From assembly GCA_040390065.1 (NCBI GenBank), contig JAZJZE010000009.1:346930-410929 (forward strand): DNA of 64,000 nucleotides, written 5' to 3'. The number at the start of each line of letters is the position of its first letter. Position 1 is the stretch's first letter. This stretch comes from a bacterium. GTDB lineage: Archaea; Thermoplasmatota; E2; JACPAO01; JAHFTW01. Position numbers and translations under genes: made by a program. Positions 9,203-52,382 of the stretch are shown here, piece by piece. The notes under the pieces are model-generated. The model did no database searches. It was not told where the DNA came from and saw only the letters and a program-made list of their open reading frames with translations.

Positions 9203-9269
9203 GTCAACAGACACCACAGATGCAACCGATGAATGACCTCTATCTGTTTCATCTGTTCCATCTGTTGAC
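9203..9269. repeat. 9-mer palindromic element (intergenic copy A)
   Basis: GTCAACAGAC-ACCACAGAT-GCAACCGAT-loop-ATCTGTTTC-ATCTGTTCC-ATCTGTTGAC. Confidence 0.85.
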
Positions 9270-9322
9270 AAGCGGCCGCAGTCGGGTCATTCGGCTCACG
9301 ACGACCGCAGACTCGGACACTC

Positions 9323-10846
9323 CTACGGCCCGGTGTACTGCAGGATGTAGAGGCCCGTCGCTTCGTCGCTCACGTACAGCAATCCCTGGTTCTGCACGAC
9401 GCCCCAGACATCCGGCTGCATGGTCGGCGACGCGGCCCGCGGCTTCGCGGTCATGTAGAAGCCGACCTCGACGGGATCCTTCATGTGTTCGGGGCTGGAC
9501 GCATCGATGACCCATACGCCGGCGTGGTAGTGCCCGAGGGCGACCTTGCCGTCCCACAAGTCGAAGTTGTGCGGGCTGAAGTTCAGGCCCGAGACGCCAA
9601 GCGGCGGGTTCTGCGGCGGCAGCGTCCAGTGCCCAACGGCGGACGGGTGGCTCGGGTCGGACGTGTCGATGAAGGTGATCTGGCCGGTCTCGTCGGGCGC
9701 CGAGATGATCTCCGGCTCGGCAACCGTGACTTGCGCCGTGTGCAAGCGGCCGTCGGGACTGGCGACTTGCATCGGCGTCGCAAACGCCTTGGCGAAGTGG
9801 ATGTTGTTGAAGGCGCTCGGCGCGAAGTCCGTGAAGGCGCCGACCTCGGCCAGCATGGGCAGCGCGTCGGGCGCGGCGGCGCTTGGTGGCGGCGGGTTGG
9901 AGAAGTCCAGGATGCGCAGCCCCTCGTCCCAGTACGCTAGGTCGATGAGCGTCCGGCCTTCCTGGAAGGGGTGGACCTGCACCGACGTGTCGTGCGGGAA
10001 ATACAGTTTGCCGGCCGGAGGCGACTGGACGATCTGGAACTGGGCCACGGGGAACAGGCCGACCTTGGGGACCGGGGCGCCTGGCACCGGCGACGGCGGA
10101 CTCGACTGGATGAGGTACACGATGAGGCGTTGCGTCACGGGGACGGCGCTCGCGATGCCGCCGGTCACGGGATCTGCAACCAGGTCGTATGTGCAGACGA
10201 GGAGGTAGTCGTTGCCGTTGGCGTGGCGGAAGAACGTGATGGTGTGCGGGCCGTTGTACGGCAGGGGAACGAACGAGTCGAGTTTCGGGGCGCCCTTGTC
10301 CGCGATGTCGACGACGTAGATGCCGCGACCGACGCCGGCCGCGGGCGTGCCTTGCGCGGCGAGGCCTCCGGCGAGTTGCTGCACGCTATTGCGCTGCGTG
10401 GACAGGAACGCGAGCGTCTCTTCGGGGTTGACCTCGACGTCGGCGCCGCCCTGCGCGGAGAAGTGCGACACGACGTGGGGCTGGCTCGGGTCCGTGTGGT
10501 CGATGATGCTGAAGCCGCCGTACGAGCCGTCCGACGATTGCGCCACGAGGTACGCGTACTGCTGCGTCACGGCAATCTCCGTGTACGTGGCGTGCGGCGG
10601 GATGCGATCGGGGTCGCCGGAGTCGTCGATGGCGTTCGAGTAGCCGACGAGGGCCATGTTGGCCGAGCCTTGATGCAGGTGCGCGTTTGTGTGGCCGGCG
10701 GGGTCGTCGTGGTCGACGCGCAGCACCGGCGCTGCGCTGGCATCGACGAAGCCCTTCACCGCAGTGTAGTCTGGACCGTTTTCGTCCTGCTGCAGGCAAC
10801 CAGCGGCAGCCAGCACCACAAACAATGTCGCCGCGACGGTCTTCAT
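9323..10846 (-). CDS. LVIVD-repeat beta-propeller lipoprotein
   Basis: Lipobox AAGC; GFSIIDHTDP, GIYVVDIAD, GLRILDFSNP, YHAGVWVID, GLYILQY repeats. Confidence 0.85.
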   Translation of the reverse strand: MKTVAATLFVVLAAAGCLQQDENGPDYTAVKGFVDASAAPVLRVDHDDPAGHTNAHLHQGSANMALVGYSNAIDDSGDPDRIPPHATYTEIAVTQQYAYLVAQSSDGSYGGFSIIDHTDPSQPHVVSHFSAQGGADVEVNPEETLAFLSTQRNSVQQLAGGLAAQGTPAAGVGRGIYVVDIADKGAPKLDSFVPLPYNGPHTITFFRHANGNDYLLVCTYDLVADPVTGGIASAVPVTQRLIVYLIQSSPPSPVPGAPVPKVGLFPVAQFQIVQSPPAGKLYFPHDTSVQVHPFQEGRTLIDLAYWDEGLRILDFSNPPPPSAAAPDALPMLAEVGAFTDFAPSAFNNIHFAKAFATPMQVASPDGRLHTAQVTVAEPEIISAPDETGQITFIDTSDPSHPSAVGHWTLPPQNPPLGVSGLNFSPHNFDLWDGKVALGHYHAGVWVIDASSPEHMKDPVEVGFYMTAKPRAASPTMQPDVWGVVQNQGLLYVSDEATGLYILQYTGP

Positions 10847-11484
10847 CGGTTGGGCGACCCGGACGGAGACTCAAAGGGGTTGTGGTCCCGCAGCCACGCC
10901 TCGTCGGGTGGGTCGCGCGTCGTGATGCCGTTGCGGCGCAGCAGGTCACGCGTGGCCGCGAGGGGGAGGCCGACGACGTTGCTCCACGGGCCAGCCTGGA
11001 TGCGGACGTAGGGCTGAAGCATCGTGTCCTGGATGCCGTAGCCGCCGGCCTTGCCCTGCCACAACCCGGAGTCGGCGTACGCGTCCACGACGGCGGCGGG
11101 CATGCGCTCCATCAAGACGGCTGTGACCGCATGCGATGCGTCGACGGCACGGCCATCCCACGCCAGAGCGAGTCCGGTCCACACTTGATGCGTCGTGCCC
11201 GAAAGGAACGCGAGCTTCTGCCGCATCTCCTCGGGCGTCACGGCCTTGTCCACGAGTTCATCGCGGCAGGCAACGACGGTGTCGGCGGCGAGCACGAAGG
11301 CGCCGCGGTCCTTCTCACTCGTCGCAAGCGCCTTCTTGCGCGCGATGACTGACACCGCTTCCGCGATGGAAAGCGCCCGCGGCGCGACCTCTTCGACCGG
11401 TGTGGGCGCCACCGCGAAGTCGTCGACCAGGAACTTGAGCAGGATGGAACGACGAGGCGACTGCGAAGCGAGGACGAGACGCAT
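10843..11484 (-). CDS. maf: Maf family nucleoside triphosphate pyrophosphatase
   Basis: LVLASQSPRR, AADTVV, GKAGGYGIQ, NVVGLP. Confidence 0.95.
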   Translation of the reverse strand: MRLVLASQSPRRSILLKFLVDDFAVAPTPVEEVAPRALSIAEAVSVIARKKALATSEKDRGAFVLAADTVVACRDELVDKAVTPEEMRQKLAFLSGTTHQVWTGLALAWDGRAVDASHAVTAVLMERMPAAVVDAYADSGLWQGKAGGYGIQDTMLQPYVRIQAGPWSNVVGLPLAATRDLLRRNGITTRDPPDEAWLRDHNPFESPSGSPNR

Positions 11485-11529
11485 CGGGGAAACAGCCGAA
11501 GGGGGACGGCGTCTTAGCCGTTGGCCGCG

Positions 11530-13053
11530 CTACTCCGCAGCGACGTACGCCACCGAGCGCCCCTGGCGTTCGCCGTGGACGAGGCCGCCCTTGGCCAAAC
11601 GGTTGAGGCGATGCTGCGCCGTCGTGCGCTTCCAGCCATGCTGCTCCACCATGACTTCGAGGATGTCCTTCTGGGTCAGCCCGGGGGAAGCGGCGACGAC
11701 GGAGTGCAGCAGGCTGAGTTCTGGCTCGCGAAGGTAGACCGTTCGCTCCCAACCCTGCTTCGCCGCCGCCTTGGGGAAGAACCTGCGGGTGGAACCGTGC
11801 AAGTGCTCCACGGCCATGCCGTTGCGCACCAGGATGCCGAGGTGGTGATTGGCTTGGCTCGGCGACGACTTCGTGATGCGCGCCACTTCGCGCAGCGTCG
11901 CCCCCGGATTCGCCGCCAGCACGGCCCAGATGGCATTGCGCACGGGATGGGAAAGTGGGTCGCGCAGGCGACGCGTGAAGAACCCAGCTAGGAGTCCCTT
12001 CACGACGAGGACGCCTGCGACGACGGCGCCCACGACGGCGACCGAGACAGAGGCGCCAAGAAGCAGCCCGGGGGCAATCGCGGCTTCATCGTACTTGGCG
12101 GTCCGAACGGTGCCCGAGAAGCCGGCGCTGGCCCGGCCAGACCCGGCTTGATGGATCCCGTCCAGACGCAGGGTGCCCGTCGCTTGCAGCGTTTGGTTCT
12201 CTGGCAACTCGCAGGTGTCGCAGTCGGTCGAACCCTTTGCGAGCGGGAGCCGGACCCAGCCGTCGACGTCCAGCGTCAGAGACGGGCCGCCGAGCAGGGC
12301 GAGGCCGACGACGCCGGCAGCGTGAAGCGAACCGCCGGTCGTTGCCAGTTCCTCGTAGTTGTACGAAAGAAGTTGCACCAGTTGGTCGGGTGGCAGCCGC
12401 ACGTCCTGCCTCTGCAGGCCGCCGCCATCGGGACAAGGCGACGCGTCGCAGGCAACGGTGGCGTTGAACCATTCCACGGTCCGGACTCCGGTCGCCTGCA
12501 CCTCATAGGCGAATCCCGTAGCTCCAAAGAAGTCGTAGCGGCCGACCACGTCACCGTCCTGCCCGGCGCGGCCACGGAAAAGGCGGTCGTAAGGGCCGCT
12601 TTCTGGTACAAGTTGCGAAAACGGCCGTCCCTTTGCCTTCGCGGCGAGTTCGGCGGCGCCGCCGGCCACGTGAATCGATATGGATTTCGCCTCCACGTAC
12701 AACGAGGACCGACCGCCGAGACGCAGAGTTTCGCCGGTGCCCGCCACCGTCAGGTTCGTGTCGCCACCCTGGCCCGGCAGGTCGACACCGCCCGATGTCG
12801 GACTGTAATACGAATTGATCTGGACGGTGTGGTTTGTCACGACGGCGCCGGCTGCTTGGTGGACGTCCACAACGGACGGCGCAGCCGCCGCGTCCGTGAA
12901 CAGCAGCAGGCGCGCACCGCCGGAAAGCGTCGCGTTGCCCGAAAAGGCCGCGGGAAGCGCGAAGTCAAGCGAGGCCTGCGGCTCCCCGGCGGCAAGAAGC
13001 GGCGCGGTGGCCAAGAGAATGGCGAGGACTACGGCGCAATGGGGTGCTTGCAT
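11530..13053 (-). CDS. Membrane-anchored transcription regulator: extracellular N-terminal domain + TM + tandem winged-HTH
   Basis: Signal peptide, TM near aa 335-360, FFTR..PLSHPVRNAI..NPGATLRE..HHLGIL, SPGLTQKDI (COG3398-like double wHTH). Confidence 0.8.
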   Translation of the reverse strand: MQAPHCAVVLAILLATAPLLAAGEPQASLDFALPAAFSGNATLSGGARLLLFTDAAAAPSVVDVHQAAGAVVTNHTVQINSYYSPTSGGVDLPGQGGDTNLTVAGTGETLRLGGRSSLYVEAKSISIHVAGGAAELAAKAKGRPFSQLVPESGPYDRLFRGRAGQDGDVVGRYDFFGATGFAYEVQATGVRTVEWFNATVACDASPCPDGGGLQRQDVRLPPDQLVQLLSYNYEELATTGGSLHAAGVVGLALLGGPSLTLDVDGWVRLPLAKGSTDCDTCELPENQTLQATGTLRLDGIHQAGSGRASAGFSGTVRTAKYDEAAIAPGLLLGASVSVAVVGAVVAGVLVVKGLLAGFFTRRLRDPLSHPVRNAIWAVLAANPGATLREVARITKSSPSQANHHLGILVRNGMAVEHLHGSTRRFFPKAAAKQGWERTVYLREPELSLLHSVVAASPGLTQKDILEVMVEQHGWKRTTAQHRLNRLAKGGLVHGERQGRSVAYVAAE

Positions 13054-13511
13054 TCGAGGTCACTGAATCTGTGGAACGTGCCGGTCAGGCGGTAGCTTGG
13101 CTGCACGAGTCCACGCCCTTCGTACGCGGTCTGGCCGAGCCGGCTGTACAGCATGGGCGGGTTCATTGTGCCCGTCACGACATAGGGTTGGAGCCCGAAG
13201 GTCGATTCTTCCCGAAGGTCGAGCAGCGTGACGTTCGTTCCGGCGATCCACACGACGCGGATGATGTCGTGGCTTGGCTTGGGGTTCAACTCCGGGTCGT
13301 CCGCACTCATGGAGGACTGCATGCCCGCCGGGGTCCGCCACGTGGCTGCCATGCGGGGGACCGGGGAGGCGGGAGTCCAGTCAAAACCGATGTCCGCCGG
13401 TCGGGCCGGGAACGCGTACGCGGTCGAGACCATCGCGGAGACGTTGCCATCGCTGACGTGCCACACTCCGGGATCCGGCAGGCCGTGATCAACCACAAGG
13501 CGACTGCTCAT
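13029..13511 (-). pseudogene. N-terminally truncated third copy of lipoprotein family A
   Basis: IIRVVW..VTLLDL..GTMNPPML..GTFHRFSDLECKHPIAP aligns to the family A C-terminal half; no signal peptide or lipobox. Confidence 0.65.
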
Positions 13512-13835
13512 ACCTGGGGCCGCCCAGCAACACCTGCGATACCCAGCTGCCCGCTCAACAGAAGCCAATTACCGCCGGAATCAGCGGACACGGCTACGAG
13601 GACCTGACCGATGGGGACGAAAATACAGCCCCCGAAACCGTCACCGCTCACCTCATCGATGGCTGGGCCTCGTGGGGGTTCAATGATCCTCTGACTGTCA
13701 TCGGGTCGCCTGCCGCGCGCCAAGGAGCCGACTATCCAGGTTCATCTGGAATCTCATGGAAGACCATCGACCCGCAGGGAGCGGTGTGCGCGGCGCCGGG
13801 CCTCGGCCTTGCCTGCGCCCTCTAGGAGCCGCCTC

Positions 13836-15293: not shown

Positions 15294-15317
15294 CCGCGCC
15301 GTGGTCTCCGCTTCGGG

Positions 15318-18660: not shown

Positions 18661-18669
18661 GGAGCCCGC

Positions 18670-40175: not shown

Positions 40176-40958
40176 CTAAATCGAATTCAGACGCCCGCCA
40201 TCCACCGGCATCACGATACCACGTACGAACGACGCAGCCGGCGAACAAAGGAACGCTACCGCGGCACCAATCTCCTCCGGGCGCCCCAACCGACCCTCGG
40301 GCTGCGCATCGATCCAACCCTGCCGCACCTGCGCCACCGACTTCCCCGTCCGCTTCGACGTCGCGTCACTCAGCTCGCTCAAACGCTCCGTGTCGGTGTA
40401 CCCCGGCAGAATGCAATTCACCGTGATCCCCGGCGGCAACTCCTTACTGAGCGTCTTCGACCAAGACGCCATGCTCGCCCGCATCGCATTGCCAATGCCA
40501 AGACCGACAATCGGCTCCCGCACCGACGTCGACAAAATGCTCACGATACGACCATACCCCGCCGCCTTCATCCCCGGCACACAAATCTGCGCCAACAGAT
40601 GACTCGCCAACTGGATACGCCCATACGCCTTCAACAAATCCGCCTCCGACACCTCCAACAACGGCAACGACGGCGGCCCCCCCTGATTGTTCACGAGGAT
40701 GTGCACCGGATGCTGCCGCACATGCGCCTCCACCTTGACACGCAACCCCACCCGGTCCTCCAAATCACAGGGCAAGACATGCACATGGCTGGCCCCAGCA
40801 GCCAACACCTCCTTCGCCGCATCGCGCAACTCGCCCTCGCGCCGCGCCAGCAACGTCACAATCGCACCGAGACGCCCCAGCTCGACCGCCGCGGCACGCC
40901 CAAGCCCCGCCGACGCCCCGCAAACAAGCGCATGCCGACCCTTCAAAGAAAGATCCAC
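40176..40958 (-). CDS. SDR oxidoreductase (atypical FabG-like)
   Basis: CGASAGLG, ILVNNQGGPP, TVNCILPGYTDTER, GRLGRPEE, VDGG. Confidence 0.92.
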   Translation of the reverse strand: MDLSLKGRHALVCGASAGLGRAAAVELGRLGAIVTLLARREGELRDAAKEVLAAGASHVHVLPCDLEDRVGLRVKVEAHVRQHPVHILVNNQGGPPSLPLLEVSEADLLKAYGRIQLASHLLAQICVPGMKAAGYGRIVSILSTSVREPIVGLGIGNAMRASMASWSKTLSKELPPGITVNCILPGYTDTERLSELSDATSKRTGKSVAQVRQGWIDAQPEGRLGRPEEIGAAVAFLCSPAASFVRGIVMPVDGGRLNSI

Positions 40959-41249: not shown

Positions 41250-41975
41250 CTATGGGATAAGCACGGCCCGCACCGGGCTGGCGTCGGCGCCTTCCAGCCG
41301 TAGGGGCAAGGCGATCAGGGTGTATGTTCCGGGCTTGACGTGGGCCAGGACGAGGCCTTCGAGGTTGACCATGCCGCGGGCGAAGAGGCGTTTGTGGGCT
41401 TCGAGGCCCTTGGAGGCGAAGAGGTCGGTGGAGGGTGTGTCCAACCCTACCAGGATGCAGCCGGCGTCGGCGAGGTGGTCGATGAGTTTTGGGTCGGGGG
41501 CGGCGAAGTCTTCGTTCCATTCGGTGGGGTCGGGGAATGTGCCGGTTTTGAGGAGGACGCGTGGCGTCGTGATGGGGGATGTGAGGTGAGCCGGGAGGAT
41601 GCGCTTGCCCCTTGCAGTCGTGGTCTCGATGACTTGGCAGGGTCCATAGTATGCCGTCAGGGGCATGGTGGCTGCGTCCGGGCCGTCGGTGGCGTAGTGG
41701 CGGTGGGCGTCGGTGTGGGCTCCGACGTGGAAGGAGGTGTGCATGCTGCCGATGTCGATGCCGTCTTTGTGCACGTCGGATGACTTCTCCATCTTGTAGG
41801 GGATGTCGCCGGGCCAGTTCTTGATTGCGTCGTTGATGGGGGGGGAGATGTCGATGAAGCGGACGAGCTCCTCTTTGGGCATGCCTGGCAGTCCCTTGTC
41901 GGCGGCGGCGCGGTCGGCGGCTCGGTCCGCGGCGCGGGCGGCGCTTTGGACGTCGCGCCAGGAGCCGGACTTCAT
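41250..41975 (-). CDS. kynB: Cyclase family / kynurenine formamidase
   Basis: IDISPP..WPGD, HVGAHTDAHRH, GLDTPSTD, NLEGL, GADASPVRAVL. Confidence 0.85.
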   Translation of the reverse strand: MKSGSWRDVQSAARAADRAADRAAADKGLPGMPKEELVRFIDISPPINDAIKNWPGDIPYKMEKSSDVHKDGIDIGSMHTSFHVGAHTDAHRHYATDGPDAATMPLTAYYGPCQVIETTTARGKRILPAHLTSPITTPRVLLKTGTFPDPTEWNEDFAAPDPKLIDHLADAGCILVGLDTPSTDLFASKGLEAHKRLFARGMVNLEGLVLAHVKPGTYTLIALPLRLEGADASPVRAVLIP

Positions 41976-43684
41976 GGGTGCGCCTTGGTTGGCATCTTGG
42001 CGACGACTTTGAGTTCCACGGCGATGGGGCCAGGGAGGGCTTGCACTTCAACTGTCGTGCGCGCTGGCTGGATGTTGCCGAAGTACTCATTGTAGACGGT
42101 GTTGAAGTCGGCGAAGTCGCGTTTCATGTCGATGAGGAAGGCGCTGACGTCGAAGACGTCTTCGAGGCTGGCTCCGGATTCTTGGAGGATGGTCTTGATG
42201 TTCTCGATGCATTGGCGGGTCTGCGCCTTGACGTCGTAGGCGAGGCGTTTGCCGTGTGCGTCGTGGACGGGGCCGCCGGTCGTCGCATTGGTTTTCGGGT
42301 GGCGGGGACCGATGCCGGCCAGGTACAGGAGGTCGCCGACGCGGCGGGCGTGGGCGTAGGCGGCGTAGGGTTTGGGGGCTTTGCTCGTCGCCACGACGCC
42401 TGACTTGTCAACAGATGGAACAGATGCACTAGATGACGAAATCTGTTTCTTCTCTTTCATCTGTTGACCCGTAGGGCGGGCAGCGGCCGTTTCCTGCAGC
42501 AAGGGCGAGCCGCCCCGCGGCCCTTCCGTCTTCGATGGCATGCGGCCTTCCCACTTGTCGCCCTCCTCCATGGTGAGGACGTTGAGTTGCGTTGCGCCGC
42601 CCGCGGAGCCGGAGGAGAGGACGTTGCGGTCGCCGCCGAAGTATTCGGCGTCGTCTTCGTCGAACTCCTTGTCGGCCGTGGCCTTCAAAGTCGGAGTGAG
42701 ACCGACGACGGCTGCGCCCGTCCCGTAGATGGGCTCGTAGGCGAACACGTTGCCGTCGTAGTGGTTGCTGGCGCCCATCACGGCGGACAGCCACCAGATG
42801 GCCTTCATCTTCTGGTCGCCGTTGGCTTGACCGGAGAATTCGCGGGCGAGTTGGCTCGCGTCCTCGAGGCGACCCTTGCCGAGGAATTCCAGGTACTTGC
42901 GGTTCCACTCGTCGTCCTTGAGGCTATGGATGCGGTCCTTCGCGAAGGGAATGATATCCGTGTGCATGCGGTTGCTGAGGGCCGTTACCGCAATTGCCAC
43001 GACGCGCTTGCCGGATGCTTGGACGGCGTCGCGGGCGGCCTTGCCGAGGACAATTGTCTCGGCGCGGTCGGCGTACATGTTGCACGACACGATCGAGGCC
43101 GCAATTTCATTCTTTGGCGACAATAGTTTGAGGGCCACGACGGAGCCGGTGTCGATGGGAAAACCGTGGTAGTCCACGGTGCGCATCTCCAGGCCGCGCT
43201 TCTCGCCGTGCTCGACGTACGACTTGCCAAAGGCTGGGTCCATGCGGAGCTTGTACGGAATGGAGCCGAGTTCATGCCATTCGGGGTCGACGTGGTTCCA
43301 CTCCGGCGCCGGCCGCGCTTGGACTTGGTGGCCGATGACCGAGAGCCACTGCGTCGAGTACAGCAAGAGGAGGTCGGGCTTGAGGCGCTTGATCTCGGCG
43401 CGCACGGACTCATAGGCGTCGCGGACGCGTTGGTACGCCGGATTCGCTTCGGGGATGAGGTAGGGGTGCGGAAGGCCAGGGACGATGAAGGCGGCGATGA
43501 GGCCTGGGCGCCCGTTCACCGACTGCGCCGCGGATGGCGCTGAGACCGCGGCGGCGTTCGGTTTCATCTGTTTCACGGGTTGACTCGACGAGCCACGGGC
43601 CGAACGAACCAAGGAACGCACAGACCCCGCTGAACGCGTGTTCTGTGGTTTCTGTAAAGTCTGCGGTTTGGTTTTGCGGGTCAT
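41972..43684 (-). CDS. amnA-amnD: 2-aminophenol 1,6-dioxygenase alpha subunit fused to RidA-family 2-aminomuconate deaminase
   Basis: AFIVPGLP, LYSTQWL, HVDPEW, GFPIDTG, DDEWNR, YGTGAAV (AmnA-like); YAHARRVGDLLYLAGIGPR..PARTTVEV..LPGPIAVELK (RidA). Confidence 0.85.
   Translation of the reverse strand: MTRKTKPQTLQKPQNTRSAGSVRSLVRSARGSSSQPVKQMKPNAAAVSAPSAAQSVNGRPGLIAAFIVPGLPHPYLIPEANPAYQRVRDAYESVRAEIKRLKPDLLLLYSTQWLSVIGHQVQARPAPEWNHVDPEWHELGSIPYKLRMDPAFGKSYVEHGEKRGLEMRTVDYHGFPIDTGSVVALKLLSPKNEIAASIVSCNMYADRAETIVLGKAARDAVQASGKRVVAIAVTALSNRMHTDIIPFAKDRIHSLKDDEWNRKYLEFLGKGRLEDASQLAREFSGQANGDQKMKAIWWLSAVMGASNHYDGNVFAYEPIYGTGAAVVGLTPTLKATADKEFDEDDAEYFGGDRNVLSSGSAGGATQLNVLTMEEGDKWEGRMPSKTEGPRGGSPLLQETAAARPTGQQMKEKKQISSSSASVPSVDKSGVVATSKAPKPYAAYAHARRVGDLLYLAGIGPRHPKTNATTGGPVHDAHGKRLAYDVKAQTRQCIENIKTILQESGASLEDVFDVSAFLIDMKRDFADFNTVYNEYFGNIQPARTTVEVQALPGPIAVELKVVAKMPTKAHP
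42407..42468. repeat. 9-mer palindromic element (copy B) in the AmnA-RidA linker
   Basis: GTCAACAGAT-GGAACAGAT-GCACTAGAT-GACGAA-ATCTGTTTC-TTCTCTTTC-ATCTGTTGAC. Confidence 0.88.
43514..43584. repeat. Degenerate 9-mer palindromic element (copy E)
   Basis: Right arm TTCGGTTTC-ATCTGTTTC-ACGGGTTGAC; left arm eroded. Confidence 0.5.
43599..43684 (-). repeat. N-terminal hairpin cassette (copy F)
   Basis: Homologous to 50987..51069; includes the start codon of amnA. Confidence 0.8.
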
Positions 43685-43939: not shown

Positions 43940-44914
43940 CTACGTCCGCCCCCTCGGCGTGACTCGCCGCGTCTCCGGATTAGGGTCCCACTCCACGACG
44001 GCGTTGCCGGTGCCGATGACGGTGCCGTAGCCGTGCAGTTCCGCCGGGTACTTTGGGTACGAAAGTGCGGAAAGTAACCAGGACAGGCAACCGGCGTCGG
44101 CCTCGCTCGTCGCGTCGTCGATGAGGTCCGGCATCTCGTCGAACAGCTGCGCCGCGCGTCCTTCGCGCATGAGGCGGATGGCGTGCATGTCCCACAGGTA
44201 TTGTCCGTGGTGGTAGATGCGTTCCTGGCTCATGTCTTCGGGGAGGGCGCCTTCGCGCGTGAAGTGCCGATGGCTGATGGAATTGCTCGCGAGGAGGAGG
44301 GCGCGGCGTCCCGACTTCTCCACGGCGCGGCGCGTCGCTTCGCCGAGGGCCTTCTGCTGGGCTTGTCCGACGTCGTTGCTGTAATATTTATACGAACCAT
44401 TGGATGAAATGCCGACGATGGGTTTGTCCCACTTGGGATTCACCATGTGGCACGCCGCGATGGTGCCGTAGTCGACGCGGTATGCCGGGTTGCGCATCAT
44501 CTTCGTGACGAGGCCGGCGCCGCGGGCTTCCTTCTCGATGACCTCGGCGAGCTCGACGTCGACGTCGATGTCGCACTTGAAGCGGAAGAGGTTCGGGAAG
44601 ATCGGGTCGACGCTCAGGTTCGAGAAGTGCTTCACGCCGAGGAAGTGGTGGCCGACTTGGGTTCTCCAATGCGGCGAGTGCACGATGATGACATCGTATT
44701 CGCGCATCTTGCGGTCGAGGCTTGCCCGCAGCCGTTCGTAGCCCCACCGAACCGGCTCCCAGCCGCACTCGGCCGTCGCCTCGTTCTCTGGCGGGTTGTC
44801 GGCGTAGACGAGGTGGGGCGGATGCGGCGAGAGGCAACCGGCCACGATGCGGCCTTGCTGCGCCGTCGGCTGGGGGCGATTTTGGGCTTTGCCACGCGGG
44901 GCTTGCCGTGCCAT
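43940..44914 (-). CDS. amnB: 2-aminophenol 1,6-dioxygenase beta (catalytic) subunit
   Basis: SPHPPHLVYADNPPENE, VHSPHW, SVDPIFPNLFR, MMRNPAYRVDYGT, GYGTVIGTGNAVVEW, close to the recalled AmnB sequence. Confidence 0.9.
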   Translation of the reverse strand: MARQAPRGKAQNRPQPTAQQGRIVAGCLSPHPPHLVYADNPPENEATAECGWEPVRWGYERLRASLDRKMREYDVIIVHSPHWRTQVGHHFLGVKHFSNLSVDPIFPNLFRFKCDIDVDVELAEVIEKEARGAGLVTKMMRNPAYRVDYGTIAACHMVNPKWDKPIVGISSNGSYKYYSNDVGQAQQKALGEATRRAVEKSGRRALLLASNSISHRHFTREGALPEDMSQERIYHHGQYLWDMHAIRLMREGRAAQLFDEMPDLIDDATSEADAGCLSWLLSALSYPKYPAELHGYGTVIGTGNAVVEWDPNPETRRVTPRGRT

Positions 44915-44990
44915 CGCCGAAGACGACCGCCGCTTGCCGTATCACTGTTTTGGACCCGGCCTGGCCCACGCTTACGTGGCCGGCTGGCGC

Positions 44991-45203: not shown

Positions 45204-45304
45204 GGCCCCACCTTCCGAGGCGCGCGCCCATAAGGCGTGGGTTTGCCAACGCCGCCCACACCCGCCAGGTCCCAGGAGGCAACCTTGAAGGGGGAGCCCC
45301 ATGC

Positions 45305-45613: not shown

Positions 45614-46104
45614 CGGCTCTTGGCCGTGACGACGGGGCGCCCCGCCGTCGGCGTCGGGGGCGCCTGAGCCTTCAGGTAGGCGACGATCTGGTTCAGTTCC
45701 TTGTCGAATGTCGCCTGCGGCATTGCCGTCCCGTTGAGGATGGTCGAGCCTTGACGCGTCAGGCTGGCCATGAAGACGGCTTCCTGGATCTCCTGCTCGG
45801 TTGCGCCGTTGAGGCGAGCCGCTTCGGTGTGGAAGAGCACGCAGTAGTGGCACGGGATCTGGGCGGAGACGCCGAGGCCGATTAGTTCCTTGACCTTCCC
45901 GGAGAGCGCCGTCTTGTCCGACAGCTGGAAGTCGCGCAGGCCGGCCCACCAGAGCCGGAATTCGTTGGGCTGCAGGACGTTGGCAAAGGATGGCACCATG
46001 CCGAAGGTCTTCGTCAGTTCCGTCTTGAGGTCATTGGGCAGGCTTGTCGGAGGGTTGGATGTGGGCATGTTGGGCACCCGACCAGGGGCATTCCCGTCAC
46101 CCAT
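45610..46104 (-). CDS. Carboxymuconolactone decarboxylase/AhpD family
   Basis: KELIGLGVSAQIPCHYCVLFHTEAARLNGATEQEI. Confidence 0.9.
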   Translation of the reverse strand: MGDGNAPGRVPNMPTSNPPTSLPNDLKTELTKTFGMVPSFANVLQPNEFRLWWAGLRDFQLSDKTALSGKVKELIGLGVSAQIPCHYCVLFHTEAARLNGATEQEIQEAVFMASLTRQGSTILNGTAMPQATFDKELNQIVAYLKAQAPPTPTAGRPVVTAKSR

Positions 46105-46227
46105 ATGAGGGGGAGGGCCGAGGCAGGCACCGCCGACCCGGTTGCTTGCTCCTGGACCAGGATCATCGCCGGTTCCTTGCAGCTCACGCGTGGCCCGCGC
46201 CTGGAATCGCCCGCCAGCTCTCGCCGG

Positions 46228-47430
46228 TCACGCCTCTTCTGCCTTCGAGCGGCGCGCTCTTGCGCCCAGGCCTGCCAAGAGCACGGCTGCGACGGCCGCG
46301 GGGATTGGCAACGCGGGCGTCCCATTCGAAGCGGCCGGCGCCACCTGCGCTGCTGCCGTGCCGTCCGGGGCCCACGTCAGGTTGTGCAACAGCAACGTCG
46401 TCGCCCCGCCGATGGCCACGGGTTGGCCGTGCGCGTCGGCGTCGATGTCGAGGAACATCCTGTCGTGCCATTTCATGGCGCCCGCCGGACCGGACAGGTG
46501 CACCGCGCACGACGCGGGCAACGTGGAGTACGCGCACGTGGCGTCGCCTGGGATGCCGCGCCCACTCACGTACAAGGTGACGCGCAGGTCGACTGAACCC
46601 GCGGTCGGCTGCGTCGCATTGCCGACACTTGCCAGGCCGATGACGAGGTCTGCCGTTCCGCCGACATGCAAGTCACGCGGCGCATCCCAGTAGTCGCTCA
46701 GGACCTTGCTGGCAAACACTGGAGCCGGCCCGACGGGACACGAAGCGGAGGGCAGCGCAGTGAGGGCGATGGCCAGGCAGCGCTGGGAGCCCTGTCCGAC
46801 GTGGAATTCGATGTCCCCCGATGGGGGCAAAAGCGAGAGCGCGGAGGCCGTCACGTTGGCGCGCACGACAGGGAGCCCCCAGGTGCCGGCCAGTTCGATG
46901 CGCGATGGGTCTGAGCCGCCAAACACCATGGAAGGCGTGAACACGGCGGCGATCGTGGGGAACCGAACGGCGACCGAGGTCTCGAGGAAGGGCACCGCAG
47001 CGCCCGGACCGGCCAAGGCGACGTCGCAGATGTCCGCGACATCGCACAACCGTTTCCCCGTCGCGACGAGGGTCTGGCCATGCGTGACGTCGACCTGGAC
47101 CTCGAAGACGCCGGGATGAAGGAGCGGGGAGAAGCGCAGGAACGCCGTCCCTTGGCCGGTGGCGTTCAGGATGAGGTCCGTGCCGTTGCCATTGAACATG
47201 TGGGGGGGCGCCCCTCCCTGCCCGGCGGCTGCCACGGCGAATCCCTGGCCGCACGAGCCGGAGTCCGCCGCCGGCTCCGCGATAAGGTTGTAGGGGCCGC
47301 AGGCGAAGTTCGCTTGGTCGCCCCGGTCCATGTAGAGCACCAGTTTGTCGCCTTGGGTGACGGCGCCGGCCTGCGGCGTCACGGTTGCCCCGAGAACCAG
47401 GAAGGCCATGACGACCGCCAGCCGCATCAT
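46228..47430 (-). CDS. Secreted surface protein with PGF-CTERM-like anchor
   Basis: Signal peptide AGA; C-terminal TPALPIPAAVAAVLLAGLGARARR. Confidence 0.7.
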   Translation of the reverse strand: MMRLAVVMAFLVLGATVTPQAGAVTQGDKLVLYMDRGDQANFACGPYNLIAEPAADSGSCGQGFAVAAAGQGGAPPHMFNGNGTDLILNATGQGTAFLRFSPLLHPGVFEVQVDVTHGQTLVATGKRLCDVADICDVALAGPGAAVPFLETSVAVRFPTIAAVFTPSMVFGGSDPSRIELAGTWGLPVVRANVTASALSLLPPSGDIEFHVGQGSQRCLAIALTALPSASCPVGPAPVFASKVLSDYWDAPRDLHVGGTADLVIGLASVGNATQPTAGSVDLRVTLYVSGRGIPGDATCAYSTLPASCAVHLSGPAGAMKWHDRMFLDIDADAHGQPVAIGGATTLLLHNLTWAPDGTAAAQVAPAASNGTPALPIPAAVAAVLLAGLGARARRSKAEEA

Positions 47431-49046
47431 GGCGCACCGCCCTTCACGCAGATGTTGCGCGGTTCCGAGAAGAAGTCCAGTGAGTGGCGGCCGCCTTCGC
47501 GCCCGACGCCCGATTCCTTCATGCCCCCAAAGGGCACCCGCAAGTCGCGCACAAGCCAACAGTTGACCCAGACCATGCCGGTGTCGAGAGCCTCGGCAAC
47601 TCGTTTGGCTTTTGCGGCGTCGGTCGTCCAGACGCTGGCGGCTAGACCATACCGCACGTCGTTGGCGAGCCGGACGGCCTCGGCCTCGTCCGCGAAGGCC
47701 TGGATCGTGACGACGGGTCCGAAGATTTCCTCCTGCACGCAGCGCGACGACTGCGCCAGACCGGTCACGATCGTCGGTTCCAGAAACGCCCCGTCCGAGA
47801 ACGGCGTCGGCAACTTGGGGCGGGATCCACCGAGCGGGATTCGTCCGCCGTCTGCCTTTGCGATCGTGATGTAGGCCTCGACCTTGGCGCGGTGCTCCTT
47901 GCTCACAAGGCTGCCGAGGTCCGTCGCCGGGTCCGCCGGGTCGCCGACCTTCATCTGCTGGGTTCGGGCGACGAGGCGCTTCGTGAACTCCTTCTCGGCC
48001 TTCGCCTCGACGAGGATACGCGAGCCGCACAAGCAGATTTGCCCGGTGTTCGTAAACGCGGAACGCACGACGCCTTCGACGGTTGCGTCCATGTCGCAGT
48101 CGGCAAAGACGATGGTCGGATTCTTGCCGCCGAGTTCGAGGCTGACCTTCTTGAGGTGGGGCGCCGCCGATTGCGCGACGCGGCGACCCGTCGCCGTTCC
48201 ACCGGTGAAGGAGATGGCCCGCACCTCAGGATGCTCGACAAGCGCTTGGCCGGCTTCGGGGCCGAGACCGTGGACGACGTTGAAGACGCCGGGCGGCAGA
48301 CCGGCTTCCAGCAGGACCTTGCCGAGAGCGTCGGCCGACAGCGGCGTCAATTCCGAGGGCTTGGCCACGACCGTGTTGCCCATGGCAAGGGCCGGTGCCG
48401 CCTTCCAGGACAGGAGATAGATGGGCAGGTTCCACGGCGTGATGAGCCCAACGACGCCGACGGGGGCGCGCACCGTGTAGTTGAGATGGCCCGGCATCGG
48501 ATGCTCGATGCGGCCTTCAGCGACCGCGAACTCGGCGAAGAAACGCAGATTCGAAATGGCACGCGGAACGTCGAGGCTGCGCGCGAGCTTGACGGGCTTG
48601 CCGGTGTCCCGCGATTCGAGCGACGCGAACTCGTCCATGCGCGACTCGATGAGGTCGGCGGCCTTCGTCAAAATGGCGCAGCGCTTGGCGAGTGGCGTCG
48701 CGGACCAAGCGGGGAGTGCGGTTTTCGCGGCAGCAACGGCTGCGGCGACGTCGGACGTGCCACTGCGAGGGATGGTGGCGATTTCCTTGCTCGTGGCGGG
48801 ATTGATGACGGAGATTGTGCGGCCGTCGGCTGCGGGTCTTGATGTGCCGGCGATGAGGTTGCCGACGTCGACGACCGCCCCATCAACAGATGCAGCAGGT
48901 GCCGACCGGAACGAAGCGGTGGAATCGGTTGTATCCGTTGCATCGGTTGACCGTTGGGCGTCGCGCCTGGCGAACCCGTACGCGCGCGCCAAGTCCCTCT
49001 GGGCGACCTTGCGGTCCTTCTCGAGCCAATCGAAGCCGTCGGTCAT
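47427..49046 (-). CDS. amnC: Aldehyde dehydrogenase (2-aminomuconate 6-semialdehyde dehydrogenase-like)
   Basis: ITPWNLPIYLLSWK, FTGGTATG, LELGGKNP, GQICLCGSR, EEIFGPV, WVNCWLVRDLRVPFGG. Confidence 0.88.
   Translation of the reverse strand: MTDGFDWLEKDRKVAQRDLARAYGFARRDAQRSTDATDTTDSTASFRSAPAASVDGAVVDVGNLIAGTSRPAADGRTISVINPATSKEIATIPRSGTSDVAAAVAAAKTALPAWSATPLAKRCAILTKAADLIESRMDEFASLESRDTGKPVKLARSLDVPRAISNLRFFAEFAVAEGRIEHPMPGHLNYTVRAPVGVVGLITPWNLPIYLLSWKAAPALAMGNTVVAKPSELTPLSADALGKVLLEAGLPPGVFNVVHGLGPEAGQALVEHPEVRAISFTGGTATGRRVAQSAAPHLKKVSLELGGKNPTIVFADCDMDATVEGVVRSAFTNTGQICLCGSRILVEAKAEKEFTKRLVARTQQMKVGDPADPATDLGSLVSKEHRAKVEAYITIAKADGGRIPLGGSRPKLPTPFSDGAFLEPTIVTGLAQSSRCVQEEIFGPVVTIQAFADEAEAVRLANDVRYGLAASVWTTDAAKAKRVAEALDTGMVWVNCWLVRDLRVPFGGMKESGVGREGGRHSLDFFSEPRNICVKGGAP
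48883..48951. repeat. 9-mer palindromic element (copy D) in ALDH N-terminal extension
   Basis: TCAACAGAT-GCAGCAGGT-..-ATCGGTTGT-ATCCGTTGC-ATCGGTTGAC. Confidence 0.75.
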
Positions 49047-49819
49047 GTGGGGCCTGCCGCAGGAGCCGAGCCAGCAGGGAAACTGAGGAAGAACTCGGCG
49101 AAGAAAATGAGGACGGCAAGACCGCCGGCGACGAGAGCAATCCAGTTTCGCGCGTGGTAGGAACCACCCTGCAGGCGCATTGTTGCCTCGGCGACGCCCC
49201 ACACGCCGCCGAAGGCCGACAGGAGCCAGGCGATGGCAACCGGTACGACCAACCAGGTGGGCGGGGCGTTTGGCAAGGCCGGCGCAAGAGCCGCCAGCAC
49301 GGTGGTGGCAAGGGCCGCAAAGGCAACGCCCACAAGCCACGCTGCCACGGGCTCCGGCACGGGCGCCGTCACGGATGGGGCTGGCCTCCGCCGGCGGGCG
49401 CGACCTCCCGACCACCAAAGTACCGCGGCCCCTGCGCCGAACCCCAGGCCGAAGGCGACGGGGAATTCCACGGCGTCCGCCCTGGGCCGGCCACGTGCGG
49501 CAACGACGATGAGGACCGTGAAGAGCAGGCCGACGCAAGCGACGACGATGGCCGCAATCTGTAGGCCATGAAGGGGGCCGGTGCCCTTGGGCAGTGGGGG
49601 CGACCGCTCGACCATTACGCGGTTGACGACGGGCCGAGGTTTGGCCGTTGCCGCAAGACGCCAACACACTGCGGCGAGGCCGAGGAAAATGACCTCCATG
49701 GCGAGGGCGTCGAGCCAACGGTTCGTGGCGGTCGGGCGGACAAGAGCCTCATACGCGGCCAGTTGAGCCAGGGCGACGAAGGCGACGGCCACGATTCTCC
49801 AGGTTCTTGCCGGCGACAT
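49043..49819 (-). CDS. Multi-pass membrane protein inside operon
   Basis: About seven hydrophobic segments; coupled start/stop with both neighbours. Confidence 0.65.
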   Translation of the reverse strand: MSPARTWRIVAVAFVALAQLAAYEALVRPTATNRWLDALAMEVIFLGLAAVCWRLAATAKPRPVVNRVMVERSPPLPKGTGPLHGLQIAAIVVACVGLLFTVLIVVAARGRPRADAVEFPVAFGLGFGAGAAVLWWSGGRARRRRPAPSVTAPVPEPVAAWLVGVAFAALATTVLAALAPALPNAPPTWLVVPVAIAWLLSAFGGVWGVAEATMRLQGGSYHARNWIALVAGGLAVLIFFAEFFLSFPAGSAPAAGPT

Positions 49820-51069
49820 CACGGCCCCCACCCCGGCGCCGGCCATTCGGGTGCCCACTCGTTCCAGTCGTAGTACCAGCGGTCGTCGTTGGGGTCCCAG
49901 TCGTCCCACGTCGGAATCGCTTCCAACTTCTTGGCGTACTTGGTCGGCACGATGCCGGGGACGAGGAACGCCTTCTGCCGGTTCAATTTATAGGGATTCC
50001 TCAATTCAAATCCGAGGACGCCGAGGATGGCCCGTGCGACGTACCAAGTGGCCCTCGGGTTCCAGCCGTGCGCGATCTTGACGACGACGCCGAGGCCGTC
50101 GGGGTAATCGGGGTGCACGATGGACAATCCGAGGAGGCCGTCCGCGCCTTCCTTCGCGATGACCTTGCCCTTGCAGGCCTTCAGAATCGTGGAGTCGAGG
50201 CGGTTGAAGCCGCCGACGAGGTCGGGATTCTTCGTCATGGCCTCCCAGATCCAGTCCTCGTCGCGTTCCTGGGCGAGGCGGGCATAGAGGAGGGCGAGTT
50301 CGTTGACCGTGTTCGACGCGGTCGGCAATCCGCAGCCGTCGCGGGCGACGCGGGCTGGCTGCCAATCCTTGCCGAGGAAGCGGCGCACTTCGTCGAGGTA
50401 GGCCTGGAACCACGGGTGCTGCGGCAGGAGGTAGCCGATGCGCGGCCAGCCCTTCTCTTTGCAACCCCGAATCAATGCGGCGTGCTCGCCGGAACACGTG
50501 TGATACCAACGCCGGGGCCGGCGAACCTGTCGTCCGAACTGGACGAGCGGGACATCCAGGGGGGCTTGCATGAGGCCCCACTCCGTCGGCATGAGGATGC
50601 TCTGCGCCGCCGCGACGTGCTCGGTGTCGCCGTTGTGGCTGCTGCACGAGATGGCCTTCTGCTCCCACGACAGCCCCGCGAGTTCCTTGGCGAAGACCTT
50701 CATGACGAGCGGCTTCATCATCGAGCGCCCATAGCACAGGACGTTGCCGCCGAAGGAATGGATGATTTTTCCCGGTTTTCCGTCCTTGCCCCCAACGGCC
50801 CACGCCACGGCGCCGTGGATTGTTGTTTCCGACACGCCGTATCTTCGGTAGTCGACGAGCGGCTCCCATTCCACGTCTCTGCCGGTTGGGATGCCTTTGA
50901 CTTGTTCTCCCAGCGGCGACGTCGGATACATTTCGCGGCCGGGGCCGGTTTGGAGATGGGACTTTTGGGGCTGGCCGTTTTTCGGCGCCGAACGAACCAC
51001 TGAACGCACTGAACGTCGCGTCTGGTTCAGTGAGCTCAGTGGCTTCAGTGGCTTGGTTTGGCGGGTCAT
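49819..51069 (-). CDS. L-asparaginase II (Rhizobium AnsA-type) family amidohydrolase, variant
   Basis: RSMMKP, SSHNG, TCSGEH, DGCGLP, AKEGADG. Confidence 0.8.
   Translation of the reverse strand: MTRQTKPLKPLSSLNQTRRSVRSVVRSAPKNGQPQKSHLQTGPGREMYPTSPLGEQVKGIPTGRDVEWEPLVDYRRYGVSETTIHGAVAWAVGGKDGKPGKIIHSFGGNVLCYGRSMMKPLVMKVFAKELAGLSWEQKAISCSSHNGDTEHVAAAQSILMPTEWGLMQAPLDVPLVQFGRQVRRPRRWYHTCSGEHAALIRGCKEKGWPRIGYLLPQHPWFQAYLDEVRRFLGKDWQPARVARDGCGLPTASNTVNELALLYARLAQERDEDWIWEAMTKNPDLVGGFNRLDSTILKACKGKVIAKEGADGLLGLSIVHPDYPDGLGVVVKIAHGWNPRATWYVARAILGVLGFELRNPYKLNRQKAFLVPGIVPTKYAKKLEAIPTWDDWDPNDDRWYYDWNEWAPEWPAPGWGP
50987..51069 (-). repeat. N-terminal hairpin cassette (copy G)
   Basis: Tandem CACTGA 9-mers versus TTCAGTG 9-mers; includes the start codon. 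Confidence 0.8.
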
Positions 51070-52382
51070 GCCGGCTCCGTCCTTGCTGCCACTGTCGGCC
51101 GCACCTTCTCCATGAACGCCTCCATGTTCCGTACAACCCGCGCGGAATCATGGTTGAAGAAATCGAACCACAGCATCAACCGGTCCTCAGGATGATACCG
51201 TGCGCGAATCTGCTCGGCGACCTGCGCCGCCGTCCCAATCACGGCGTTGTCGGCAGCCGTCTCCGTCTTCTTCGGGTCCAGCGTTCCCTCCAAAGCGGTC
51301 CAGTACGCATGCAGCGCCTTCTTCGCCTCCGTCTGCGCCGCCGCTGTCCGCCGCGCCGGAGTCAAGCCGGGCTCCTCGTTGATGAAAACGAGCACCGTGC
51401 GCGGCATGTAGCTGCGCTTCCATTTGCCGCCATCCTTGTGGAACGCCTTGGCCATGCGTTCGTGCGTCGCGTCGATGACGGGTGTTGGCGTGATGCTCAG
51501 GTTCGCGACGTGCGCGGGCAGGAAACGGTTCACGAGTTCGTGCACGGCGGGGTCGTGGCTGCCGACGACGAGCTGCAGAAGGTCGCGGCGGAATTCCTGG
51601 GGGACAATCTTGAGGTGCTCGAAGACGAAGCGCTTCGGCAGAGTGATTTCGGGGTTCGCCGACGCTGGCTTTTCAACAGATGAAACAGAAACAACAGATG
51701 AAGTGCCTGACATCTGTTCCATCTGTTCAATCTGTTGACCCGTCGTCTGGGCGGCGGCCAGGGCCTTCTGCCAATCCTCCTCGGACCGGAAATCCTTCCG
51801 CGTCACCTTGCGAAGGGGAATGTCCGCGCCGCAAATCGTTTCGCCCGCAAGCAGTCGAGCGAAGATCTCGGCCGCTTCGTCGAAGACCTTGCCTTTCCAC
51901 AGCCCAAACGGCAACGCCTTCTCGAGTGGCGTTTGCGGGTCGATGCCGTAGGCGCGGTTCTGGAAGTCGAAGCGGCCTGCGCTGAAGCCGACGTGCAGAC
52001 GGCGGCGTTCGTTCGGGTCCAACCCGTGCAGGCTGAGGAAGTAGGCAATGCGCTCGGCGTGGGCGACGGGGCCACCAGACTGCAGGAGGTTGAGGACCGC
52101 GGAGCCGACGTCGATGCGTTTGGTGCGCCGAAAGACTTCGTGCGCGGTCTGCATGATGTCGACGTTGAGCCCGACTTCGCCCTGCCAATGCGGCACGACG
52201 GGCTTGCGGTTGCGCTTCTGCACTTCCGTGGAAAGGTGCGCCTCGGCGACCCAGGCGACGCCGAAGCCCAAGCGGTCGGCGGCCTCGACTTGTTGGAAGA
52301 AGTGCGCAAGCATGGTGCGCTCGTCCGGCGTCACGCCGTCGACGGGCGTTTGCGAGATGGAGAAGAAGACGTCGAACTCCAT
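51066..52382 (-). CDS. LLM-class flavin-dependent oxidoreductase
   Basis: EAADRLGFGVAWVAEAHLS, IDVGSAV, ERIA, RLHVGFSAG, FMEKVRP. Confidence 0.9.
   Translation of the reverse strand: MEFDVFFSISQTPVDGVTPDERTMLAHFFQQVEAADRLGFGVAWVAEAHLSTEVQKRNRKPVVPHWQGEVGLNVDIMQTAHEVFRRTKRIDVGSAVLNLLQSGGPVAHAERIAYFLSLHGLDPNERRRLHVGFSAGRFDFQNRAYGIDPQTPLEKALPFGLWKGKVFDEAAEIFARLLAGETICGADIPLRKVTRKDFRSEEDWQKALAAAQTTGQQIEQMEQMSGTSSVVSVSSVEKPASANPEITLPKRFVFEHLKIVPQEFRRDLLQLVVGSHDPAVHELVNRFLPAHVANLSITPTPVIDATHERMAKAFHKDGGKWKRSYMPRTVLVFINEEPGLTPARRTAAAQTEAKKALHAYWTALEGTLDPKKTETAADNAVIGTAAQVAEQIRARYHPEDRLMLWFDFFNHDSARVVRNMEAFMEKVRPTVAARTEPA
51673..51739. repeat. 9-mer palindromic element (copy C) inside LLM gene
   Basis: TCAACAGAT-GAAACAGAA-ACAACAGAT-12 nt-ATCTGTTCC-ATCTGTTCA-ATCTGTTGAC. 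Confidence 0.9.

Follow-up and report, generated by a model that had tools for sequence, protein, structure and literature searches.

The palindromic hairpins that lie between genes, and in frame within genes, of an archaeal genome belong to a dispersed repeat family, one member of which carries a nuclease gene of the GxxExxY type between the same inverted arms. They were noticed in a stretch of 64,000 nucleotides of contig JAZJZE010000009.1 (positions 346,930 to 410,929; assembly GCA_040390065.1), and this whole stretch is called the window here. We consider it probable (roughly 0.78) that a small selfish element, driven by its nuclease, gave rise to the hairpins, which would be its non-autonomous copies without a gene. 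The full-length form of this element would consist of two inverted arms, each made of three 9-mers and a short GC-rich outer part, around a core GxxExxY nuclease of ~115 residues (PD-(D/E)XK fold; PF13366/TIGR04256). The nuclease would recognise the 9-mer units of its own arms, and copies would spread or be renewed by nuclease-made breaks and host recombination repair, in a manner resembling homing or gene conversion rather than cut-and-paste transposition with target duplications. Most insertions would fall between genes, and rare ones that keep the reading frame in tolerant loops or linkers would persist. As the arms are free of stop codons in two frames and encode hydrophilic peptides (QQM.., ..SVD), such rare insertions can be expected to survive and to be translated as extra loop residues.

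The repeat family, its full-length member and the paired nucleases

The family was delimited in the genome that contains the window (G000; 2.68 Mb in 50 contigs, 89% complete, 66.8% GC), which encodes an eRF1-type release factor. Each arm is composed of three tandem 9-mers with the consensus GTCAACAGATG-NAACAGATG-NAACCGATG, also written GTCAAC-AGATG-NAACAGATG-NAACCGATG. The motif AACAGATG has 12 occurrences in the window where 0.78 would be expected, and in none of 100 shuffles were 12 reached. An arm profile (nhmmer) made from 33 arms retrieved 51 arms in the genome at E <= 0.02, so that the scan suggested by the original prediction did yield further copies genome-wide. A looser rule, which demands at least two 9-spaced AACNGA[ACT] units, found 77 arms compared with 4 in the reversed-sequence control; these 77 arms group into 53 loci, 24 of which are arm pairs. 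The ends of the element are unlike each other, one reading ...CGCTGCCCGCCNNACGG|GTCAAC and the opposite one GTTGAC|AAG. The repeated unit thereby exceeds the core by ~17 nt (CGCTGCCCGCCNNACGG ahead of GTCAAC) and by at least 3 nt (AAG) at the far end, and the element measures ~85–95 bp. As read off the consensus, stop codons are absent from two of the three frames of each arm.

The orientation of the copies relative to transcription varies, both directions being represented, and most copies lie between genes, many of them in operon spacers immediately 3' of stop codons. Using a codon-usage score that flags a locus as intragenic if its 150-nt flanks are coding in one open frame on both sides, 48 of the 53 loci were not flagged; four of the five flagged loci were confirmed, and the fifth (C17:17242) has two units only. 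The enrichment in one operon that had been claimed is real, four of the 53 loci being clustered in a 9.3-kb part of the window, though further clusters exist on other contigs. Rfam gave no match for the elements, its sole match in the window being a tRNA and none an rRNA, and of the sequencing runs, which were listed for DNA only, four DNA contig runs returned the source contig and pieces of other copies, with no empty allele and no joint at an element. The pentamer GACGG, considered as a target motif and dropped, stands beside several copies and in some empty sites; it is frequent in this GC-rich genome and absent at the junctions of other families. An interpretation as replication origin or iteron arrays was rejected because at least 50 copies are dispersed, some of them inside genes.

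Three intact copies lie in the window, and by length all three rank within the first seven of its 62 reported inverted repeats. Copy A (9187–9279, plus strand; inverted repeat I7) is intergenic, gene-less and antisense to both adjoining genes; its core, GTCAAC...GTTGAC, spans 9203–9269 and is bordered by CGCTGCCCGCCGACGG on the left and AAG on the right. Copy B (42404–42485, minus strand; core 42407–42468; I1) lies in frame in the linker of a LigB-RidA fusion gene and reads T-G-Q-Q-M-K-E-K-K-Q-I-S-S-S-S-A-S-V-P-S-V-D-K. Copy C (51669–51747, minus strand; core 51673–51739; I4) lies in frame in a luciferase-like monooxygenase gene and reads T-G-Q-Q-I-E-Q-M-E-Q-M-S-G-T-S-S-V-V-S-V-S-S-V-E-K. Copy D (48882–48955, minus strand), in frame in the N-terminal extension of an aldehyde dehydrogenase with the peptide RSTDATDTTDSTASFRSAPAASVD, is decayed: its left arm is intact as an AACCGAT variant and its right arm is mostly gone. 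The original prediction had listed five hairpins. The motif is found at all five places and the insert peptides quoted for them are those obtained by translation, but intact hairpins exist only at 9203, 42407 and 51673. The copy at 48883 is the decayed one, and what had been taken for a degenerate palindrome at 43514 is a solitary arm (CAACCCGTG-AAACAGATG-AAACCGAAC; 43556–43585, minus strand) near the 5' end of the LigB-RidA reading frame and without a partner arm. That copies A and B have strings and flanks in common and lie in opposite orientations relative to transcription was confirmed on the sequence, whereas the lengths of 60, 66 and 65 nt assigned to copies B, C and A depend on where the ends are drawn, since the repeated unit runs further on both sides.

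Folds were computed as single-stranded DNA and compared with 200 dinucleotide shuffles. Copies A (z -3.24), B (z -3.67) and C (z -5.25) fold better than the shuffles, with one, one and none of the 200 shuffles being as good, respectively; copy D reached z -1.17 (28/200) and the stretch 43514–43590 z -0.12 (91/200), which means that there is no hairpin at the latter. The hairpins are strong in either strand, and the predicted folds contain symmetric 2x2 and 3x3 internal loops between helices of 6–9 bp. The in-frame copies have a GC content of 0.42–0.57 compared with 0.668 in the genome and use rare AT-rich codons. When 500 synonymous recodings with the codon usage of the genome were folded, none was as good for copy C or for a further copy in the seryl-tRNA synthetase gene, 28 were as good for copy B and 303 for copy D. 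Palindromy is thus a property of the DNA; for the intact copies it exceeds the codon-shuffled controls, and this control rules out that it is a by-product of the peptides.

A full-length copy is located at C17:28698–29146 of the same genome, where arms of the family enclose an open reading frame (ORF) of 149 codons that matches PF13366 (PDDEXK_3) with 121.7 bits and TIGR04256 ('GxxExxY protein') with 130.9 bits. ATGs in the units of the 5' arm (QQMKQMQQM...) provide the start codons of this ORF, whose final codons run through the 3' arm (...SSVSSVPSVE), with the arms in the same frames as used in copies B and C. The locus is flanked by an eRF1 gene and an amino-acid-kinase gene, which point away from each other. 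Besides this gene, the genome has a second intact PF13366 gene and three damaged ones, of which one is frameshifted, one degenerate and one reduced to a remnant. All four except the degenerate copy, at which no arms were noted, have arms that can be recognised and are of their own kind. In an alignment of 15 nucleases from the genus the G..E..Y motif is kept, E71 and K73 are invariant, and D61 is present in 14 (one row has Y). The structure model has a pLDDT of 96, and its weak structural neighbours include RecB-type nuclease domains, Hjc, the R2 endonuclease and I-Bth0305I; a sequence search of the PDB with the nuclease gave no match. The function of PF13366 is given as 'Unknown' where the 2012 survey of PD-(D/E)XK nucleases covers it (PMC3424549). 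The suggested link of such palindromes to GxxExxY genes is borne out, as arms of this design flank PF13366 genes in this genome, in its sisters and in bacterial relatives. A similar link to four-helix-bundle genes found no support, PF05635 having no match in G000.

Nucleases and arms are paired. In G000 and five sister genomes, the nuclease genes with recognisable arms each have their own arm units, and the number of gene-less copies goes with the cognate nuclease in all 10 genome-by-family cells. The two-unit CACCGAT pattern CACCGATNNCACCGA is present 2, 56, 1, 34 and 140 times in G000, G004, G002, G003 and G008, and among these five genomes only G004, G003 and G008 have a CACCGAT-armed nuclease gene. 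The two-unit AACMGAT pattern AACMGATNNAACMGA is present 73, 74, 0, 1 and 0 times in the same genomes; the AACAGAT-armed nuclease is intact in G000 and internally deleted behind a GTCAACCGATG arm in G004. Reversed-pattern controls gave zero throughout. All 13 genomes of the genus have PF13366, compared with one of 28 relatives outside it, and inserts of unit arrays were seen only within the genus. Beyond it, a search with a single nuclease protein as query, which covers the nearer relatives, returned 44 loci with 33–58% identity from Flavobacteriales, Acidobacteriota, Chloroflexota, Verrucomicrobiota, Planctomycetota, Ignavibacteria and others, together with one Methanophagales archaeon. The flanking inverted repeat lies above the maximum of 30 shuffles at 33 of the 41 loci tested, with arm units such as CCACAGATG, CACGAAG, CGCGAATGG, CACCGAG and AACGGATT. 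The design of arms plus gene is therefore present in unrelated genomes of bacteria and archaea, and the nuclease is the only gene seen between such arms, both in the genus and across phyla. The suggestion of an undescribed archaeal coding palindromic element holds as far as an in-frame repeated palindrome is concerned, given inserts that orthologs lack and further copies, but the element is not archaeal as such, because the nearest relatives of its nuclease with the same arm design span many bacterial phyla. Nuclease pairs with a common arm 6-mer are on average 58.4% identical compared with 49.2% for other pairs (0 of 2000 permutations; 34 of 56 loci usable, without phylogenetic control).

In-frame insertions and repeated use of the same sites

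Judged from orthologs, the insertions in four enzyme genes are truly in frame. In the window these are the gene of a LigB-type dioxygenase subunit fused to RidA/YjgF (41972–43684, minus strand; Pfam LigB at residues 80–326 and Ribonuc_L-PSP at residues 434–563; true start uncertain), the gene of an aldehyde dehydrogenase with N-terminal extension (47427–49046, minus strand; Pfam Aldedh, 588 bits; start MTDGFDWLEKDRK at 49046) and the gene of the luciferase-like monooxygenase (51066–52382, minus strand; Pfam Bac_luciferase; start MEFDVFFS). The fourth, outside the window, encodes seryl-tRNA synthetase (C17:43038–44456) and is the only match for this enzyme in the genome. All four copies are inserted with the same polarity, the ACGG end being first in the reading direction of the host gene, and all four keep the frame without a stop codon. 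Three of them read T-G-Q-Q-M ... S-V-D-K, which corresponds to the frames of the nuclease ORF. With one boundary rule, the copies within ORFs belong to one length class (62, 68 and 77 nt; n = 3); the intergenic pairs fall into all three classes. With so few copies, this adds nothing to the evidence from orthologs. No gene was found split out of frame, since the three candidates, whose coding flanks are in different frames, proved to be located immediately behind stop codons.

The alignment of orthologs that had been proposed as a check shows the inserts to be absent, or to be of other unit families, at the same sites. The monooxygenase has orthologs in 21 other genomes, and among the 22 sequences 14 have no or almost no insert; five genomes (G000, G004, G008, G002 and G003) carry unit-array hairpins. 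Three genomes of other genera (L016, L018 and L021) have an insert of 30–35 residues with no evident unit arrays and no PF13366 gene, perhaps the completely decayed remains of an old insertion, or else a loop expansion of separate origin. No sequence relative of the monooxygenase was found in the PDB. In all 12 genomes of the genus that were compared, the LigB and RidA domains share a reading frame, so that the fusion is native; its linker contains unit-array hairpins in nine of the 12, with none in G005, G006 and G007. In the aldehyde dehydrogenase an extension of ~30 residues, M[TS][DE]GFGWL.KDR..AQRDLARAYG..KR, precedes the catalytic domain (48956–49046 of the window, minus strand) and is conserved across most of the genus, three genomes having a different one (MDA..YDRELREVAKRDRAREAAFLQ). 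Only three of 13 genomes, G000, G004 (intact) and G010, have a unit-array insert after this extension, two of the ten insert-free genomes being judged from translation alone. Residues 224–261 of the seryl-tRNA synthetase have a counterpart in none of 23 relatives, and the two halves abut in 21 of these. The segment is also additional to the solved Pyrococcus enzyme (2dq0), where it would lie between YKVE and DLYLI.

At the synthetase site 133 nt stand in place of 28 host nt, and only the central ~83 nt are repeated elsewhere. At this locus (C17:41538–45956, L121), the non-repeated flanks of the insert are themselves partly inverted (CTCGGGGCCGCC... / ...GGCGGGCCCGAG), which hints at a copy nested in an older palindrome. 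The spacer that holds copy A is 168 nt long in G000 compared with 44 nt in the sister G004, which has no element there. On these comparisons, the insertions in the synthetase gene and at copy A are clearly recent and unique. The original prediction had asked for target-site duplications; the comparison of filled and empty sites revealed none at either of the two.

The same host positions carry different unit families in different genomes. The monooxygenase site has AACAGAT units in G000, CACCGAT in G004, C.CAGAG in G008, CACGGAG in G002 and GCGCAGAG in G003. In three of the four sisters, G004 (L030), G002 (L033) and G008 (L036), they match the arms of a nuclease of the same genome. The LigB-RidA linker contains AAC[AC]GATG (G000, G004), CGCCGAAGA (G010), CGCGGAT (G012, G001, G009), C[AC]CAGAT (G002) or CACTGAA (G008) units, with copies at a second site of CACCGATG (G008) and CACGGAA (G011) type, and the aldehyde dehydrogenase has AACCGAT (G000), CACCGAT (G004) or CGCCGAA (G010) units. 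Within the proposed explanation this raises the sub-question whether each position was hit repeatedly or whether one old insertion had its arms overwritten by gene conversion from the family active in each genome. For overwriting speak that the boundaries of the monooxygenase insert agree within about one codon between G000 and G004, that one LigB-RidA family is common to G000 and G004 and another one to G012, G001 and G009, and that, from one unit family to another, all repeats of both arms are changed at the same one or two positions. However, when the insert is masked, the monooxygenase tree does not group the five filled genomes but places each of them next to an empty sister (support for G003/G011 100/97, for G002/G001 85/88, and for G004 with (G000, G010) 96/93), so that one old insertion would need six or more clean losses, and the recent insertions in the synthetase gene and at copy A argue in the same direction. 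Several independent hits on one position are thus the simpler reading, and overwriting is rather doubtful.

Origin of the hairpins and comparison with known systems

A nuclease-driven origin has to be weighed against two other explanations. According to one of these, the arms are a mobile unit that is moved in trans by another enzyme, and the GxxExxY gene either came to lie in the loop as a passenger or serves addiction or defence, with the hairpin as its vehicle. PD-(D/E)XK nucleases cannot join DNA by themselves, and this lack of strand-transfer chemistry, which leaves the insertion step unexplained, favours such a scenario and weighs against the nuclease as driver. Several further observations count against the nuclease in the same way: G004 has as many copies (74) as G000 despite the internal deletion of its cognate nuclease; only one full-length copy with these arms is present in G000, which is 89% complete; for the monooxygenase insert of G003, a genome that is 66% complete, no nuclease gene was seen whose arms would match; the CACCGAT-armed nucleases L029, L030 and L032 are not mutual closest relatives (52–57% identity), a common arm unit thus not always marking the closest kin; the best structural neighbour of the nuclease model in Foldseek is Cas4 SSO0001, which is a weak match (E 1e-3, TM about 0.5–0.6); and the correlation of arms and nuclease sequences could reflect linkage and shared descent instead of recognition. 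Another mobilising enzyme is nevertheless unlikely. PF01797, which represents Y1/RAYT-type transposases and gave a positive result in six of 14 known genomes used as control, has no match in the 89% complete G000, the nuclease is the sole gene seen between the arms (at 33 of the 41 loci across phyla), its start codon is inside an arm, and copy number follows the cognate nuclease in every cell compared. A route via repair rather than transposition is suggested by the missing target duplications, by the replacement of host nucleotides at the synthetase site and by the lack of a recognised transposase.

The other explanation regards the hairpins as host RNA signals selected in the operon, that is, as processing or excision sites, mRNA stabilisers or ribosome-pausing elements; RNA excision or processing had also been offered by the original prediction. 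The hairpins being strong in either strand, the many copies in operon spacers right after stop codons and the clustering in one operon would fit such a function. We consider it very improbable, because close relatives with conserved genes have the same sites empty, because the frame is maintained where the hairpin has decayed, as in copy D, because all four intragenic copies remain open, which excision would not demand, and because copies lie in both orientations relative to transcription. Archaeal introns are marked by a bulge-helix-bulge motif, in which two 3-nt bulges on opposite strands are separated by a 4-bp helix at the excision borders; the elements with their symmetric internal loops lack this motif, and Rfam returned no match for them.

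By analogy, the nuclease-driven element behaves similarly to two known systems, REPIN-RAYT and the Rickettsia palindromic elements (RPEs), but its enzyme is a different one. As described for REP doublets and their REP-associated tyrosine transposases (Bertels and Rainey, 2011; PMC3116915), short inverted hairpin repeats are scattered over the genome, for the most part in intergenic positions; the enzyme gene, present once and itself bordered by these repeats, is greatly outnumbered by copies that lack a gene, and several repeat groups exist, each paired with its own enzyme gene. The 24 arm pairs, the three folded copies of the window and the 48 of 53 unflagged loci correspond to inverted hairpin doublets that are mostly extragenic. 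Unlike the HUH/Y1 transposase (PF01797) of that system, the enzyme here is a minimal PD-(D/E)XK protein (PF13366), and also different from the account given there are the arms of three tandem 9-mers, the in-frame intragenic copies and the start of the nuclease ORF within an arm (Bertels and Rainey, 2011). RPEs, rightly named as a behavioural precedent, are likewise palindromes found in frame within metabolic and housekeeping genes of unrelated kinds, where they lengthen the host protein by a peptide without destroying it (PMC10969869); in the present family, four host genes have in-frame inserts that orthologs lack. They are ~150 bp long and the review's passages on them name no associated enzyme gene (PMC10969869), in contrast to the ~85–95 bp and the cognate nuclease described here. 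In addition, four confirmed copies among 53 loci are intragenic in the present family, and its design spans bacteria and archaea; to our knowledge, RPEs are confined to Rickettsia.

Other known elements resemble the family in part. Miniature inverted-repeat transposable elements are also short, gene-less and multicopy, have terminal inverted repeats and are related to a longer, gene-bearing form. However, target-site duplications are absent here at the two datable insertions, host sequence was replaced at one of them, and the gene-bearing form encodes no known transposase, only the ~115-residue PD-(D/E)XK nuclease. The intervening sequences of 23S rRNA contain a small ORF (PF05635) within long inverted repeats and interrupt an essential gene whose function is kept, and GxxExxY genes also occur in such intervening sequences. 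They differ in that the present copies lie in protein genes and spacers, as do all copies of the window, and in that tolerance depends here on the reading frame and there on excision by RNase III. Homing endonuclease genes and TnpB-type nucleases, which cut vacant sites and keep transposons in place (PMC10690162), follow the logic proposed here of nuclease breaks and copying by recombination; unlike them, the present elements have no intron or intein context and no guide RNA, they comprise many dispersed gene-less copies instead of one allele-specific site, and their cleavage is a proposal. A search of the literature on GxxExxY/PDDEXK_3 proteins, in-frame palindromes and intervening sequences, with subscription journals and supplements outside its scope, returned no description of the pairing of arms and nuclease.

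Hairpin repeats are common in prokaryotes and mostly unexplained, and we know of no pairing other than REP/RAYT that links such repeats to an enzyme. The present data would tie a second, unrelated enzyme family (PF13366) to the hairpin-repeat design in an archaeal genus and in many bacterial phyla, and they give GxxExxY proteins a testable role. What the window adds, as far as the genome comparisons go, are in-frame insertions backed by orthologs, the reuse of the same sites by different families, the association with copy number and the restriction to one genus. AT-rich oddities in GC-rich genes, which annotation pipelines may misread, are thereby explained. Three enzymes in which different families have repeatedly struck the same positions provide a natural experiment on the tolerance of inserted loops, and the variation of the 9-mers with matched nucleases could disclose a simple code of protein-DNA recognition. 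A more far-reaching view, which we put forward as tentative and regard as somewhat less likely than its negation, is that of an undescribed, domain-spanning class of selfish elements, in which a minimal PD-(D/E)XK nuclease would read a tandem-repeat 'address' in its own arms and families would diversify at one or two positions of the 9-mer. Such elements would repeatedly strike or overwrite the same host positions and might be a recurrent source of loops, linkers, N-terminal extensions and perhaps start codons, essential proteins like seryl-tRNA synthetase included.

Related palindromes, solitary arms and neighbouring genes

Two further palindromic elements of other unit types are present in the window. 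One with C[GA]CAGA units (43599–43684, minus strand) begins with ATGACCCGCAAAACCAAACC, ends with GGTTCGTTCGGC and lies directly 3' of the stop codon of the upstream LigB gene. The other one, with the units CCACTGAAG-CCACTGAGC-TCACTGAAC (CACTGAA units; 50988–51069, minus strand; I24, 89% complementary), lies between the stop codon of the monooxygenase and the probable start of an Asparaginase_II gene. Both have a common end framework, starting with ATGACCCGCMAAACCAARCC and ending with GGTTCGTTCGGC, and each is situated directly where the gene upstream has its stop codon. Because of this, the first residues of two unrelated ORFs are nearly the same (MTRQTKPLKPL... and MTRKTKPQTLQ...). At the end of the monooxygenase gene the stop codon and an ATG overlap (ATGA, 51066–51069), and the annotated start of the Asparaginase_II gene may be an artefact of the element, since the domain begins 75 codons later and a better start is available at ~50931. 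The LigB-RidA gene adjoins a second LigB gene (43940–44914) and the aldehyde dehydrogenase gene, and the whole looks like an aminophenol/aminomuconate-type meta-cleavage operon with a fused deaminase.

A lone AACAGATG is located outside any array at 40594–40601 of the window. Elsewhere in the genome, solitary GCAAC-type arms (C8:17815–18000, C9:85190–85363, C9:71256–71420 and others) are followed by a second repeat with CCCGGTCGGGGC, present in 16 copies, and a GGGATTC...GAATCCC hairpin; taken together, they may form a larger composite element in which one arm of the family is employed. Where an element lies just 5' of a gene, the ORF is open through the arm and its first start codons are the in-frame ATGs of the arm, as at 43556–43585 of the window and at C6:79714–79772, where GQQMEPMPPMS... 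stands ahead of a membrane protein. In this way, arms may supply start codons and N-terminal extensions.

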